Notes: generated by a model not told the origin, from the letters alone. A stretch of DNA of 64,000 nucleotides from Candidatus Bathyarchaeota archaeon (GCA_005888735.1 VBBN01000027.1:99845-163844), one strand, 5' to 3'; shown: positions 1-47,929, counted from the stretch's first letter. Program-made: numbers and translations.

Positions 1-971
1 AGTACGACCATGAAGTCGGCCTAAAAACAGTCATCAGACCAGGACAGGCGGACAGCGCCATCCTACACCTTCCTAACAAGCGCAGCCTGGCCGCCACCAC
101 AGACGGCAACAGCAAACAATCCTACCTCGATCCCTACTGGGGAACAGTCAACATACTCTGCGAGGCAGTCTCCAACCTCGTCGCCACCGGCGCCACGCCT
201 CTGGCCATCGTCGACCACTTGCAATTTGGAGACCCCGGCAATCCCGAAGTCTACTGGACCTTCAAAGAAACAGTCCGAGCCATCACCGACTACCTTCGAA
301 CAATGCACGTCCCCTGCGTTGGTGGAAAAGTCAGCTTCTACAACGAAGACGAGCAAACCAAGACCGCGATCAAACCCACCCCTGTCATCGCCGCCCTCGG
401 CCTACGCGATCCCAAGACCCCGTGGACCACACTATCCCTCAAAGAGGAGAATGATGATCTGATTCTCGTCGGCACAACAAACGGGGACATGGGCGGGACA
501 GAGTACTACGAACAAACACATCACCTCGTCGGAGGATCCGTCTCCAAGCCTAACCTGAGAAAGGAAAACAGGTTCCACAGAGCGGTTCTCCGAGCCATTC
601 GGAGTGGCAGGGTCAAAGCGGCCCACGACGTCTCAAAAGGCGGGCTTGCAACAGCTCTGGCCGAGATGGCCATCGCGGGAGACAAGGGCTTTCTCGTGGA
701 CCTTGGAAAAGTCCCGGGCAAAGTCGCTAGAATGGACTACTTGCTCTTCTCCGAGAACAAGCCCCGATATGTTCTAGAGTCCAACCGGAAGAACACACTG
801 CTCATCCTCCGCGGTCTGAAGAGTCTGAAGATTCCAGCCGCAAAAATCGGCACCGTCCAGAAAACCGACCTTGTATTCAGCTATCCAGGCAAGACAATGA
901 TCAGCATCCCACTTTCTAGCGCGAAAGAGAAATGGGCCAGCATCCCACGGGCGATGGAAGCAACCCTTTAA
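1..971 (+). CDS. purL: Phosphoribosylformylglycinamidine synthase II (FGAM synthase PurL), C-terminal part; 5' end lies outside the window
   Basis: The frame is open from base 3 and in phase with the listed 219..971 ORF. Translation reads YDHEVGLKTVIRPGQADSAILHL...GTVNILCEAVSNLVATGATPLAIVDHLQFGDP...VSKGGLATALAEMAIAG, a PurM-like second domain typical of the PurL C-terminal half. It ends with TAA. Confidence 0.8.
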   Translation, partial: YDHEVGLKTVIRPGQADSAILHLPNKRSLAATTDGNSKQSYLDPYWGTVNILCEAVSNLVATGATPLAIVDHLQFGDPGNPEVYWTFKETVRAITDYLRTMHVPCVGGKVSFYNEDEQTKTAIKPTPVIAALGLRDPKTPWTTLSLKEENDDLILVGTTNGDMGGTEYYEQTHHLVGGSVSKPNLRKENRFHRAVLRAIRSGRVKAAHDVSKGGLATALAEMAIAGDKGFLVDLGKVPGKVARMDYLLFSENKPRYVLESNRKNTLLILRGLKSLKIPAAKIGTVQKTDLVFSYPGKTMISIPLSSAKEKWASIPRAMEATL

Positions 972-1210
972 CCAGCTATCAAGCCTCGCTCATCAACAGT
1001 CGCAAAGGGGGTTGTCGAGGTTCGATTCAACTCCCTTCTACAACATCGCTCTAATCTCGGTTATTGACGTGGTCTAGACGCGAGCGGGCTTCAGAATCTC
1101 CTTCACAAGTAGTGGTTCTTGGCGCTGATGTTTCTAGTCCTGATAGTGGAGACCTCAACCGTCAACTTGTCGCCAATCTGGCGATTAATCCCACAGTTCT
1201 GTGGCAGTGT

Positions 1211-1285
1211 TCGCCCATTCTCCCCGCCGAACAGAAAACGGTCCCCGGAAAACTACCGGGTACGGACGCGGCCGATTGAGACGTG
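1211..1285. repeat. Copy A of a conserved ~75-nt intergenic element (second copy at 46737..46812)
   Basis: tcgcccattctccccgccgaacagaaaacggtccccggaaaactaccgggtacggacgcggccgattgagacgtg aligns with 46737..46812 at about 85% identity. It contains the hairpin CCCGG-aaaacua-CCGGG and lies between the convergent genes purL and the SPFH gene. Confidence 0.5.
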
Positions 1286-1314
1286 GGAGACCCGAGTCAG
1301 AGCCTAAGGCTTTG

Positions 1315-2277
1315 TTACATTTTGTGGCCGCACTCAGGACAGAACTTTGTCCCCGCGGCCATAACCGTCCCACAGTCTGAACACTTGACAGTGGCCGGTG
1401 TCATCGATGCTCCGCAGCTAGGGCAGAACTTAGAGCCTTGAGCCGCCTGCGTCCCACACTTCGGACACGCGACCATAACAGTCTGAGGAGCTGTCTGCAT
1501 CGGAGACTGCATCGGCGCATTCATCACCTGCGGAATCAAGACCATCCCAGCCCCTAGACCCGCGCCTCCCTGCGAAGTGCTCAAGCTCTTCCCGATATCC
1601 TTAGCCGTCTCCATCCGCAACACGTCCTGAGCAGAAGCCCGCTGCTTAAGCCAGAACAACCGCTCCCGGAACTCGTCAGATGTGTCAACCCCTTCAAACT
1701 TGAAATCCACAAGATCAGAACCAATCCGTTGCATCGCATCGTTAATGTTGACCTTTGTAGCGATTGACACCTTGTCCAGCTGAGTGAACGCAGAGGTCAG
1801 ATCATACTTCGACATCTCATCAATAACTCTCTCGTTGATAAAGCCCCTGACAAAATCGTTAACCTGCCCCGTATTGTAGGCACCTTGGCCCCCAACAACC
1901 TCGTTCACGAACAAGCTAGCCTCAGTGATCTTGAACCAGAACGTCCCATGAATCATCAAAGGCGCCAGCTCGGTCGTCTGCGCCTTCGCGCCCCACTTAC
2001 CAGCAAACTGCTTCGTAGCAACGAAAATCACAGTCGCGGTGAAAGGATTCTTGCCTCCGAAGAAAATACCGTAGGCCCTAGAGATCAACGGAAGGTTCAG
2101 AGTCGTCAGCGTATGCCTCCCCGGCCCAAAAACATCATACGCTTTTCCGTCACGCAGGAAGACTGCTGCCTCGTACTCGTGGACTACGAGCTGGGCACCG
2201 GTCTGAATCTGTTCCACAGGGTACCGAAAGACAATGTCGTCGGGCCCCGCGCCCATCCATTCGATTACTTGTGGCAT
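1315..2277 (-). CDS. SPFH/band-7 (Band_7_1-type) domain protein with C-terminal double zinc ribbon
   Basis: The N-terminal region (FRYPVEQIQTGAQLVVHEYEAAVFLRDGKAYDVFGPGRHTLTTLNLPLISRAYGIFFGG...) fits the SPFH family. The C-terminus has CPKCG..17aa..CPSCG and CSDCG..11aa..CPECG, i.e. two zinc ribbons. The start overlaps the upstream gene by TAAgATG coupling. Confidence 0.7.
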   Translation of the reverse strand: MPQVIEWMGAGPDDIVFRYPVEQIQTGAQLVVHEYEAAVFLRDGKAYDVFGPGRHTLTTLNLPLISRAYGIFFGGKNPFTATVIFVATKQFAGKWGAKAQTTELAPLMIHGTFWFKITEASLFVNEVVGGQGAYNTGQVNDFVRGFINERVIDEMSKYDLTSAFTQLDKVSIATKVNINDAMQRIGSDLVDFKFEGVDTSDEFRERLFWLKQRASAQDVLRMETAKDIGKSLSTSQGGAGLGAGMVLIPQVMNAPMQSPMQTAPQTVMVACPKCGTQAAQGSKFCPSCGASMTPATVKCSDCGTVMAAGTKFCPECGHKM

Positions 2278-9895: not shown

Positions 9896-10167
9896 GAAGA
9901 AAGGTCCCGCGAGACGGTTGTAAACGGCTCAGTGGGCAAATTTAACAGTTCACACACGCAGAGCGAACTGTTGTACTAGGCTGCCTGAGGAGCGGGAAGC
10001 GACGACTTGTCTCGAACCAGTTTCTCTCACGTCTCGAACACCGATAACAGATTCTCTGAGGGTCGATTGTGACTCTTCCCCGCTCTCAACTACTAGCAAT
10101 CGCTCTAGGTATCCTCAAATCTACGTGACAAGTCTCGCATATTCTCCTAAACAAAGCTGAGAATACT

Positions 10168-45357: not shown

Positions 45358-45789
45358 CTATTCCATTGGCGTTTCGTCATCCGGTGCGGCATATTTCTTG
45401 GGCGGCTCCCAAAGCTCTAGCCAGTTACCTTCAGGATCGCTTATCCAGGCGAACTTGCCGTACTGTGATTTTTCGAGTTTCCTGGCGATTTTGACCCTTT
45501 CTCTGCGAAGTTTCTGGAGCACTTTTTCCAGGTTCTTGACCCTGTAATTGATCATGAACTGCTTGCGAGGATTGTGAAAATAATCAGTGTTCGAGGGGAA
45601 CAGGGCCCAAACAGTGTAGCCCTTCCGTTTCGCCTCCTTAGGACCTTGCCAAGTGAAGAGGGCGGTGTTCTGGGTAGTCTTGAGCCCGAGGTGCTTTCTG
45701 TACCAATCGGACAACCTCTTCGGGTTTCGCGCTCTGAAGAACACACCACCGATCCCGGTCACCCTTTTGCTGGAGGGCTTTGCGGTCAA
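45358..45789 (-). CDS. VOC-family (glyoxalase-like) protein
   Basis: GIGGVFFRARNPKRLSDWYRKHLGL...AWISDPEGNWLELWEP is a typical single-domain glyoxalase/VOC fold signature. Confidence 0.7.
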   Translation of the reverse strand: MTAKPSSKRVTGIGGVFFRARNPKRLSDWYRKHLGLKTTQNTALFTWQGPKEAKRKGYTVWALFPSNTDYFHNPRKQFMINYRVKNLEKVLQKLRRERVKIARKLEKSQYGKFAWISDPEGNWLELWEPPKKYAAPDDETPME

Positions 45790-45969
45790 TGTCGGCCGTT
45801 TTCGTCCTCGATTGCCCTATTATCACCTTCTAAGGAACCCGAGTCTCATTTTTTCAATCTCATCGCAACGAACCCGGACGGGCGTGCCCTTTGAGATTAG
45901 TAGAACCTATTGAAACTGAGGATGGATTACGATTCGGTCACCATGTTTTAAGAACCCTAGCTGGAAGGT

Positions 45970-46500
45970 ATGAACTCGGCAATGTCGACTTCTGCTGTTG
46001 TGGAAAGGAGGAGGGCTCGGGGTTTAGAGGAGCGTTATGAAATGCTGAGGAAGACACTGGCCCACTACCTCCTCCTCCAAGTGGGCACTTTCGTTGCAGC
46101 TTTCGGTTTCGACGCTGTGGGACCCGCCATGAACACTCTCACAGACAAGAAAGCAGAGCTGAAAGTCTTGGAGGTCAACAGGAACGGCGGGGTTGGGGGC
46201 TCAGAGCAGGCGGTAAAGAGGCTCTCGCAGAACCTTGTTGATAGTATGGGTGAGACTTTCAACAGCGATTATCTAGTCGAGGCAGGAAATTCTTCTCGAA
46301 CTGTCAAGCTGAGCAGGTGCGGCTGCATAGAATCAGTCGTGGAACAAGCGGAAACGTATGGGCTCACCAAGGCCCAGGCCAGATCCATCTTTTGCGGAAC
46401 GTGCATGAGCAGCTACAAGAAAGCAGCACAGACCTTGAGCCTTAGTTTCAAGGGCAGGCTCAGTAAGGAAGGCTGCTCGATGGGGTTCTCAACAAACTAG
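45970..46500 (+). CDS. Hypothetical protein (Cys-cluster containing)
   Basis: 176 aa with a CGC...CGTC cysteine arrangement. No confident family. Confidence 0.45.
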   Translation: MNSAMSTSAVVERRRARGLEERYEMLRKTLAHYLLLQVGTFVAAFGFDAVGPAMNTLTDKKAELKVLEVNRNGGVGGSEQAVKRLSQNLVDSMGETFNSDYLVEAGNSSRTVKLSRCGCIESVVEQAETYGLTKAQARSIFCGTCMSSYKKAAQTLSLSFKGRLSKEGCSMGFSTN

Positions 46501-46736
46501 TTCCACTGACTAAACACCAGTTTGAGACACATGAGTTTCAGGTGTCTTCACATAGGGAGAGACGCTAATCTTGATCTTGTCGACCAGGGTCACCGGTGAA
46601 TCGCCCAAATTCACCCCTGAATCACAATCTGTCAGCGACCACTAACGCTCACCCTGGAGCCTTGAAGGAAAATGCTAACGATCCCATCGTGCCGAAAACC
46701 CGAAGCGCGCCCATTTTACGCCGTGTCAGCCAGAAA

Positions 46737-46812
46737 TCGCTCATTATCCCCACCAGACAGAAAACGACCCCTGGAAAAACGACCGGGTACGGACGCGGCT
46801 GTTTGAGACGTG
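46737..46812. repeat. Copy B of the conserved ~75-nt intergenic element (copy A at 1211..1285)
   Basis: tcgctcattatccccaccagacagaaaacgacccctggaaaaacgaccgggtacggacgcggctgtttgagacgtg. The hairpin is conserved with a C-to-U change that keeps pairing as G-U. It lies between convergent genes (45970..46500 and the DRG GTPase). Confidence 0.5.
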
Positions 46813-46837
46813 AAACTTCAGATCCGAAGAATTTCGT

Positions 46838-47929
46838 CTACCGCATGATTGTGACGATGTCCTTGTCAGCTGGAACATGGTCCAAGCTCACCCTTTGCCC
46901 TGCAAACTTGACACTGGGCCCTGAGACGTAGGCGTACTTCGCCCCCTCAGTGAACCGTGGATGAATACGCTTACAGACATCCAACAAGTTGGACCCGGCG
47001 GGTAGAATCAGCGGCTTCTCGAAATCCGCATCCTCACTGGGCCGCTTCAAGTATATCCGGATGAAGTTCAGGGTCTTCCAAATGTCAGAGGCCAGCATGT
47101 CAATGTGAACACCCTTCTCCGCTGAAACCGGGACAAAATCATCCCCAAGCTCCTTCTTCACCGCGTCAAGGTACTGCTCGTTGACAAGGTCCACCTTGTT
47201 CAAGACAACCCTCGCCGGAACATACCTCCGGTTCCCGGCCAAAACATCAATCAGCTCATCGTCCGAAACATCTTCCCGGATGACAATCCCTCCGTTGGAG
47301 ATCCCGTAGGCTTCCATAATCCCTTTGACGGTGTTCATGGATAACTTGGTCAGCTTGACGGTACTCGTCACGGATATTCCTCCTTTGTTCGACTTGGTCA
47401 CGGTCACATCGGGAGGCTTCCGGTTAAGCCTGATCCCCATCTCAAACAACTCCTTCTCCAGCGTCCTCAGCTGGCCCGGCTGAAACACATCCAGAACAAG
47501 AAGGATCAAATCGGCGTTTAGAGCAACAGACAGAACACGTCGACCCCTACCCTTGCCGCTCGCCGCGCCGCTAATGATACCGGGAAGGTCGAGAATCTGA
47601 ATGTCGGCCCCGTTAAGCCTCATTATTCCAGGGACAACGGTCAAGGTCGTGAATGCGTACGAAGCTACTTTGGACTTTGCGTTCGTCAGCCTGTTCAGAA
47701 TCGTTGACTTGCCAACACTCGGCAGGCCTATCAGAACAACAGTCGCGTCTCCTCCCTTCCGAACCTCGAAGGAGGGCCCGCCACTCTTGCTGGACTGCTT
47801 CTCAACGTCCCCCCGGAGCTTAGCCAGCTTCGCCTTGAGGAGGCCAATGTGGTGCTCGGTGTGCTTGTTGCGCTGGGTCTTCTTCATCTCCTCCTCTATT
47901 TCCTTAATCTTCTCCGGGACGCCCATCAC
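46838..47929 (-). CDS. drg: Developmentally regulated GTP-binding protein (DRG/Obg-like GTPase with C-terminal TGS domain)
   Basis: G1 GLPSVGKST, G3 DLPGI, G4 NKVD, and a C-terminal TGS-like region. The N-terminal coiled-coil helix is typical of archaeal and eukaryotic DRG. Confidence 0.9.
   Translation of the reverse strand: MMGVPEKIKEIEEEMKKTQRNKHTEHHIGLLKAKLAKLRGDVEKQSSKSGGPSFEVRKGGDATVVLIGLPSVGKSTILNRLTNAKSKVASYAFTTLTVVPGIMRLNGADIQILDLPGIISGAASGKGRGRRVLSVALNADLILLVLDVFQPGQLRTLEKELFEMGIRLNRKPPDVTVTKSNKGGISVTSTVKLTKLSMNTVKGIMEAYGISNGGIVIREDVSDDELIDVLAGNRRYVPARVVLNKVDLVNEQYLDAVKKELGDDFVPVSAEKGVHIDMLASDIWKTLNFIRIYLKRPSEDADFEKPLILPAGSNLLDVCKRIHPRFTEGAKYAYVSGPSVKFAGQRVSLDHVPADKDIVTIMR

Follow-up and report, generated by a model that had tools for sequence, protein, structure and literature searches.

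A lineage-restricted family of ~270-nt non-coding intergenic repeats associated with gene 3' ends in soil Bathyarchaeia

Bacterial genomes are well known to contain dispersed intergenic repeats that are tied to gene 3' ends; to our knowledge such repeats have rarely been described in archaea. Archaeal MITEs – for example SM1–SM4 of Sulfolobus and those of haloarchaea – are non-coding, dispersed and lineage-restricted sequences of 100–350 nt, and the defining marks of a MITE are terminal inverted repeats matching a parent insertion sequence (IS) and target-site duplications. Archaeal RNA polymerase stops at oligo-T without a hairpin: ordinary archaeal oligo-T terminators need none, and involve no conserved 270-nt repeat. 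Bathyarchaeia are an uncultured lineage that is abundant in soil and sediment. The REP/BIME, ERIC, BOX, RUP and Correia elements are intergenic repeats of bacteria, and repeats of the REP/BIME group can serve as terminators or transcript stabilisers (PMC3184786). Non-coding RNAs from the 3' ends of IS200/IS605 elements (IS1341-type), the omega RNAs among them, occur in archaea (PMC4615843, PMC12558985).

Here we describe a non-coding repeat of ~270 nt that is present at no fewer than 20 distinct loci (at least 20) in soil Bathyarchaeia. Two members, copy A and copy B, lie in the window, that is, the whole stretch of 64,000 nt from Candidatus Bathyarchaeota archaeon (GCA_005888735.1, VBBN01000027.1:99845-163844) that was analysed; a search of the literature found no report of such a repeat in Bathyarchaeia. 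Like repeats of the REP/BIME group, the family is non-coding, multi-copy and modular, lies at the 3' ends of genes with enrichment in convergent gaps, contains a GC-rich imperfect palindrome, and varies in module number through internal recombination (PMC3184786). It differs from REPs in being archaeal, in length (~270 nt versus ~35 nt per REP unit), in not being palindromic overall, in the conservation of its primary sequence – with a near-invariant core of 17–18 nt – and in having no transposase, RAYT-type or other, in the flanks of 20 copies. With archaeal MITEs it shares size, lack of coding capacity, dispersal, restriction to a lineage and the existence of truncated or deleted derivatives; unlike MITEs it has no terminal inverted repeats or target duplications, its copies are old, and positional orthologues are kept across species. 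As in archaeal oligo-T terminators, a run of T4–T8 stands ~65–70 nt past the stop codon on the sense strand, but here the T-run is inside a repeated, sequence-conserved cassette. Finally, as for the non-coding RNAs of IS200/IS605, this is a conserved, multi-copy non-coding sequence of archaea, of a kind that may outnumber intact transposase genes (PMC4615843, PMC12558985), yet it has no adjacent tnpB, no Pfam signal and no conserved secondary structure. The finding is a lineage-restricted addition to the known intergenic repeats associated with 3' ends, and as such more ordinary than a new structured RNA.

An initial annotation of the window, made from the sequence alone, had drawn attention to a conserved element of ~75 nt with ~85% identity between two intergenic regions. 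BLASTN bears this out: positions 1211–1285 and 46737–46812, both on the + strand, align over 76 columns at 84.2% identity, and the single 1-nt indel in this alignment disrupts all reading frames common to the two copies. The pair is the top long-range repeat in the window, with no comparable other, and degenerate 31-mer and 22-mer versions of the core each have two exact matches in the 64 kb, where shuffled sequences lead one to expect 0.00–0.02. The annotation was also right about the surroundings: from ORF calls and Pfam matches both copies occupy gaps of ~340 nt between convergent genes, no tRNA is found beside either copy (a search of the whole window found neither tRNA nor tmRNA), and the flanking gene tables contain no integrase. 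Its view of the extent, however, was wrong on two counts, since the ~75 nt are the 3' third of an element of ~270 nt and the family is not limited to the A/B pair. The caveat that the similarity might be restricted to this pair by chance is ruled out by the shuffles and by the further copies.

The nearest named relatives of the source genome are Bathyarchaeia/Bathyarchaeota MAGs. The proteins encoded next to copies B and A – a DRG-type GTPase and an SPFH/band-7 protein, respectively – are found unchanged on dozens of soil metagenome and MAG contigs (e.g., MNGL01000065.1 and VBBU01000033.1), with the DRG protein matching exactly on 40 blocks of contigs. Copies A and B hardly vary among 20 strain-level loci, which are therefore uninformative about covariation, and no differences in presence or absence of the element were seen among them.

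An exact scan of JGI metagenome contigs with an 18-mer common to copies A and B returned 93 stretches. Among the matches listed (80 of 93), ~33 have long flanking similarity and reduce to 16 distinct loci, while the remaining listed matches are chance occurrences in GC-rich bacterial DNA. Alignment of wider flanks shows that similarity reaches ~185–245 nt to the left and ~40 nt to the right of the core, and hence that the full unit is ~270 nt. A search with an nhmmer profile built from 14 copies added members that lack the exact 18-mer, namely second copies on the L103, L110 and L069 contigs (direct or inverted relative to the first copy, and 1.5–6 kb from it); further copies are those of L162, L164, L167 and L168. 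In the window the profile matches copy A at 1211–1311 (E=6e-22, model positions 181–282) and copy B at 46571–46846 (E=3e-72, model positions 18–290). A third, partial copy is situated ~3.9–4.0 kb to the left of window position 1 and is + in the window orientation (E=2e-14, model positions 42–185; L011-L020 16175–16315 (-)), in a mostly non-coding gap of ~1.2 kb upstream of purQ; a called ORF of 80 aa that overlaps this partial copy is probably spurious. The borderline 34-nt fragment GTTCGAGACGTGAGAGAAACTGGTTCGAGAC (Table 1) is in a divergent gap, between an ABC-transporter ATPase gene and an Nre gene. Scanning of a genome collection with a 21-base degenerate core gave 0 matches, the source MAGs being evidently absent from, or masked in, that collection; in viral contigs a 16-mer and a second conserved block matched by chance alone, the flanks being unrelated, and plasmid and phage collections gave no match.

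Table 1. The two copies of the repeat, their modules and their neighbouring genes in the window.
Feature	Position	Strand	Basis or remark
purL 3' end	219–971	+	Left neighbour of copy A; last 250 codons in window
Copy A	1185–1311	+	Same element minus ~135 nt between box 1 and box 3
Zinc-ribbon-containing SPFH/band-7 gene	1315–2277	-	Pfam; stop codon adjoins core-proximal end of copy A
Borderline solo fragment resembling family right end (GTTCGAGACGTGAGAGAAACTGGTTCGAGAC)	10006–10039	-	nhmmer E=0.026, model positions 245–278; not secure
176-aa hypothetical gene	45970–46500	+	Left neighbour of copy B
Copy B, full-length ~270-nt member	46559–46834	+	Family alignments; fills nearly whole 176-aa hypothetical/DRG gap
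Distal-end motif GCTAATC (family consensus GAAAGTAATC)	46564–46570	+	Left-end alignment; in ~half of copies
Internal box 1, TCGCCCA	46601–46607	+	Alignment
Boxes 2 and 3, direct repeats of box 1	46708–46713; 46737–46743	+	Internal direct repeats
A5 (= T5 on DRG sense strand)	46775–46779	-	Sequence; first T-run of four or more after DRG stop
Conserved core: ACCGGGTACGGACGCGGC, two variable bases, TTTGAGACGTG	46782–46812	+	Imperfect GC-rich palindrome
DRG-type GTPase gene	46838–47926	-	Pfam; stop codon adjoins core-proximal end of copy B

Analysis of the organization of the element shows a succession of modules. From the distal end, an optional GAAAGTAATC motif and a variable spacer of ~19 nt (often hairpin-forming) are followed by three direct TCGCCCA boxes – spaced 105 and 135 nt in several copies – a strongly conserved GGAAAATGCTAACGAT block, ACAGAAAACGA, and an A/T-rich tract; beyond this tract come the core CGACCGGGTACGGACGCGGC, two free positions, TTTGAGACGTGAGAG, and a right end with an inverted box (CGAGTC). 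Across the family the sequence of the A/T tract varies and its A/T-richness stays. The left boundary of copy B falls at about 46559–46598. In a sub-family (L107, 5805–6000; L115; the first copy of L110) an extra right-hand module of ~150 nt carries a T6–T8 run on the + strand of the element and a GC hairpin: the family thus has long and short right-hand forms. The regions of the boxes (46601–46620, 46708–46727 and 46737–46755) each read CCC-N6-7-CCC, so that the + strand has six C3 tracts and the - strand G3 tracts. The consensus + strand is rich in C and A (76 C and 68 A vs. 50 G and 41 T). Its fold is much weaker, at about -55 kcal/mol, than that of the - strand, at about -82 kcal/mol.

Copy A is an internally deleted form. 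It retains the distal TTAATC (1185–1190), the hairpin CCACAGTTCTGTGG (1191–1204), a fused box (1211–1217), A4 (1249–1252), the core (1255–1272) and TTGAGACGTG (1276–1285), and its right end reaches to 4 nt before the SPFH stop. The part shared with copy B starts exactly at the third box, with the distal TTAATC and the hairpin remaining upstream. At another locus the deletion from box 1 to box 3 is exactly what sets the short allele, L075, apart from the full one, L139, and the L164 site orthologous to copy A is occupied by a full-length element with the same derived right end (GAGACCCGAGTCAGA). Copy A is therefore a full element minus ~135 nt, which were lost by recombination between its own TCGCCCA direct repeats, and the 75-nt element of the initial annotation is simply the portion still common to A and B.

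The element is not a structured RNA. A small structured RNA family had been one of the original candidates, on the strength of a CCCGG/CCGGG hairpin in both copies and a C-to-U change taken as a hint of selection on structure. The hairpin is present in both copies as claimed, but it does not hold as a trait of the family: the 5-bp form occurs in only 3 of 14 members, a 3–4-bp CYYG/CGGG remnant of it being common. Moreover, the 3' arm never varies, so there is no covariation and the C/U change is uninformative about pairing. The Rfam covariance-model search returned nothing over the window at gathering thresholds, and only chance-level matches at the two loci at E up to 10. RNAalifold found 5 invariant pairs and nothing more on the + strand, and on the - strand a weak structure of 22 pairs, of which a single one shows a double change; an exhaustive scan of column pairs found no covarying helix, only short, promiscuous stacks of 4–6 bp. 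Minimum free energies of the whole element, compared with dinucleotide shuffles in 15 copies, gave a mean z of +0.13 (+ strand) and -0.68 (- strand), and copies A and B taken alone gave z of 0.14–0.87, except for B on the - strand (-1.37). With no Rfam match, essentially no consensus structure and no covarying helix, this candidate finds no support. Whether the inverted box of the right end pairs over a distance with box 2 or box 3 was examined by eye and in an all-pairs scan, and the pairing proved inconsistent.

Nor is the element coding. An ATG-started small ORF with a Shine–Dalgarno-like GAAGGA was considered and rejected, as most copies have lost starts, early stops or frameshifts. All six frames of the consensus are about equally open (2–4 stops each), variability shows no codon periodicity (p=0.73), and Pfam gives no match on the element even at E=10. 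One frame, NRPEQALNRNLSATINARLDGLKENAND...RPGTDAAV-stop, suggests that a small protein is encoded here or that the 3' end of a gene, for instance a TnpB C-terminus and its omega RNA, has survived as a relic: it is open in many copies, was called once as an 81-aa gene, and loosely resembles the DRDxNAAxNI motif (the string compared in the element frame is NRNLSATINA). Yet indels and an in-frame TAG break this frame in most copies, there is no excess of third-position change, and among 5.8 billion proteins the one called ORF that matches is the 81-aa ORF itself, in another copy of the element (L162), with no longer protein containing the sequence; the TnpB relic was likewise rejected for want of a Pfam match, a longer homologue, codon periodicity or a conserved fold like that of an omega RNA. 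We regard a coding origin as highly improbable. Still less can be said for attL/attR remnants, a further candidate of the initial annotation, in which the copies would be the diverged ends of a 45-kb integrated element. Two direct repeats 45.5 kb apart are what such an event would leave, but the copies are 16% divergent, the parts of the interval nearest to each are ordinary chromosomal genes with no integrase and no tRNA, the sister species keep the element independently behind each of the two abutting genes, and at least 20 unrelated loci carry it as well. The att reading is refuted by this distribution and barely conceivable; both it and the coding reading are effectively excluded.

Hallmarks of transposition were sought with the following results. 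No end-to-end terminal inverted repeats were found in the five copies examined, and there is no target-site duplication; GTTTGAGAC occurs once on either side of copy B, 281 nt apart, in the 46519–46550 and 46800–46812 regions, and is a feature of this copy alone. Neither a transposase nor tnpB is present in the flanks of 20 copies. The boundaries of the element are fuzzy because the copies are old. The trait shared with MITEs is the presence of many dispersed non-coding copies (at least 20 distinct loci), with the element absent from ~99 kb of relatives.

The distribution of the copies is biased toward gene 3' ends. A convergent right neighbour is found in about 9 of 13 scorable copies against an expectation of 25%, and the element often fills nearly the entire intergenic gap; the flanks of 20 copies show no protein family common to the neighbours. 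At copies A and B, L167 and L168 the element begins 3–10 nt past the stop codon, and at four loci (DRG in three species and SPFH here) the core motif CACGTCTC begins 24–29 nt past the stop, the order on the sense strand at these four being stop, 24–29 nt of element, CACGTCTCAAACGGCCGCGTCCGTACCCGGTCG and T-run. On the sense strand of the abutting gene the near-invariant core (CCGGGTACGGACGCGGC) corresponds to a GC-rich imperfect hairpin followed by T4–T8, a tract that copies with a convergent gene have in common and that lies about 65–70 nt past the stop; the DRG and SPFH stops are followed by no earlier run of four or more T. In every copy with a convergent gene the A/T tract is A-rich on the + strand, and so T-rich for the abutting gene. 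L139/L075 and L074, which have no evident convergent gene, have T5 on the + strand (a small sample), and L139 lies in a non-convergent setting.

The consensus hairpin has a dG of -11.8 kcal/mol (z -2.06), with an upstream AAA pairing with the first U residues. For the core CCGGGTACGGACGCGG together with its extended form, 88% of cells pair in 14 copies, as against 29–53% when the partners are slid. Of the 11 pairs 6 never vary and none shows a double change, the two lower pairs are broken in 5 of the 14 copies, and the local folds of copies A and B do not surpass those of shuffled sequence (z +0.83 and +0.45). From its sequence, the combination of hairpin and T-run resembles an intrinsic terminator, arranged as a cassette that reads in the same direction as the abutting gene. 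It was the remaining candidate of the initial annotation – a repetitive extragenic or terminator-associated element – that fits the dispersed copies, the convergent gene ends, and the GC-rich hairpin with T-run on the strand of the abutting gene.

Two sister MAGs, in which the DRG and SPFH proteins are 92–93% identical to those of the window, allow the fate of individual copies to be followed. In GCA_030157165.1 (L167) the element adjoins the DRG stop. In GCA_030157145.1 two tandem head-to-tail copies lie between DRG and a rhomboid gene (L168, 3466–4000), both with degraded cores (e.g., ACGATTCCAGC and GGGGGGGGACGCGTC) that could reflect relaxed constraint after duplication or an assembly error, and a full-length element lies behind SPFH (L164). 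The gene on the distal side differs, being rhomboid in the sister MAGs and the 176-aa hypothetical in the window: the element thus travels with the 3' end of the core-proximal gene. Between positional orthologues, identity is 75% for B and L167 and 84% for A and L164, which is above the benchmark set by four-fold degenerate sites of the flanking genes (42–68% identical between sister MAGs and window), and hardly above the range among paralogues (55–81%, mean 70%).

In more distant relatives (73–84% protein identity) no element was found in ~99 kb of sequence (L021-L024, L165, L166 and L169). Comparison of window 1–2277 plus L012 10001–19468 with L165 and L166 shows that in the latter two SPFH is followed directly, on the same strand, by Csl4-RpoL-HAD-RNase III-like-EndoU, whereas in the window genome the block from Csl4 to EndoU is inverted and separated from SPFH by purLSQ; copy A is therefore at a rearrangement breakpoint. 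At the other presumed breakpoint (L012 19469–19621) no copy of the element was detected. In L021 the gene that DRG faces, with no intervening element, is an orthologue (75% identical) of the 251-aa zinc-ribbon gene of the window. The 176-aa hypothetical and a glyoxalase-family gene beside copy B (window 45358–46500) are absent from this syntenic DRG/251-aa interval (L021 11089–11363).

Conservation along the element is uneven. With the search 18-mer set aside, 23 columns are invariant versus 4.3 expected, and the variance is 6.9 versus 2.7. Within the core, apparent conservation is inflated because most copies were found through an exact core; four copies found without the 18-mer have one mismatch, the core is intact in L162 and L164, and it is degraded in the tandem L168 copies. 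An even, neutral decay of old transposon copies would not give such an uneven pattern. Together with the retention of copies at the same positions, it argues for selection at individual loci, on at least the core and a few other blocks.

The account that we favor, at a probability of roughly 0.5, is that the family is a clade-specific repeat, probably of mobile origin, that is kept at gene 3' ends as an intrinsic-terminator-like module. The element would have spread as a non-autonomous mobile element in the ancestor of the species group, and its copies would later have been kept at gene 3' ends, usually in convergent gaps and with the core-proximal end just past the stop. Along the sense strand (the window - strand for both DRG and SPFH) the stop, 24–29 nt, the palindrome (GGCCGCGTCCGTACCCGGTCG), T4–T8 and further T4 runs would then make up a cassette that ends, and perhaps stabilises, the transcript of the abutting gene, with recombination between internal direct repeats giving rise to forms such as copy A from full-length ones. 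We infer both the mobile origin and the role at 3' ends, the former from circumstantial evidence only, since neither terminal inverted repeats nor target duplications nor a parent transposase came to light; the paralogues are old (55–81% identical). Because archaeal termination needs only oligo-T, a terminator role leaves the invariance of the core and ~200 other conserved nucleotides unexplained, and 2–3 copies (L139/L075 and L074), with the T-run on the other strand, are a counter-case.

In a rival reading the copies would be decaying relics of a selfish, MITE-like transposon that have no host function and survive between convergent genes solely because insertion there is least harmful. Dispersal, truncation and internal deletion, tandem duplication, the occurrence of both relative orientations on a single contig, the breakpoint at copy A, confinement to one clade and the preference for convergent gaps are all as such relics would have it. 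What makes us hold this to be rather unlikely is that terminal inverted repeats, target duplications and a nearby transposase are lacking, that decay has been uneven (the 23 invariant columns against 4.3), that positional orthologues have stayed at 75–84% identity when four-fold sites have fallen to 42–68%, and that the element remains with the 3' end of the same gene across rearrangements. It is possible, though unlikely, that the core (CGACCGGGTACGGACGCGGC..TTTGAGAC) is a putative sequence-specific 3'-end signal read by a dedicated protein or RNA factor, which would terminate, process or insulate transcripts between convergent genes. We know of no factor-read, sequence-specific 3'-end signal of this kind in archaea; were it real, a domesticated mobile element would have become a portable, factor-dependent terminator in Bathyarchaeia.

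Alternatively, the + strand might produce independent RNAs of ~270 nt, that is, unstructured cis-antisense or trans-acting sRNAs that start from the distal GAAAGTAATC and overlap the 3' end of the convergent gene. The succession of motif, ~19-nt spacer and conservation from box 1 onward resembles the layout of an archaeal BRE/TATA and start site, GAAATATC and TTGAAAG strings stand upstream of some genes in this genome (a weak and ambiguous resemblance), and the core could act as a conserved seed; scanning for sigma-70 promoters is not applicable to archaea. However, the GAAAGTAATC motif and its variable spacer precede box 1 in only ~half of the copies, the motif is unlike the commoner CCTTAWAC-like boxes upstream of genes, a T-run terminator on the + strand is absent from A, B and most other copies, and there is no structure, covariation or Rfam relative, so that we think such RNAs quite unlikely. 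A site acting as DNA, bound by a sequence-specific protein between convergent genes in the service of chromosome organisation, topology or insulation, would make contacts of the TCGCCCA boxes and the core: it would suit the three to four repeated boxes, the location in convergent gaps, and a primary sequence that is near-invariant even at the loop and mismatch positions of the core, rather than at pairing positions alone. No candidate protein is known, though, and the orientation of the element relative to the abutting gene is fixed, which a symmetric role at the DNA level does not require; we judge this very unlikely.

The family offers a clean example of an old burst followed by retention at the same positions in sister species, with a small and strongly constrained core. 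For annotators it provides a profile that explains intergenic DNA otherwise recorded as 'conserved', and it marks rearrangement breakpoints. If it is true that a specific factor reads the core, the family would also give a handle on termination between convergent genes in this lineage.

Some minor features adjoin the two copies. Immediately left of copy B, in the 46519–46550 region, is an AGACAC..GTGTCT hairpin (46523–46550). At 1298–1324 (+) a terminator-like hairpin, CAGAGCCTAAGGCTTTG, with a T-rich tail overlaps both the SPFH stop and the right end of copy A; it could end read-through from purL. The purL gene itself (L011-L020 11307–15036) encodes 1225–1242 aa with Pfam matches to Intein_splicing and LAGLIDADG, and so contains an intein; on the metagenome contig L019 two genes are called in its place.
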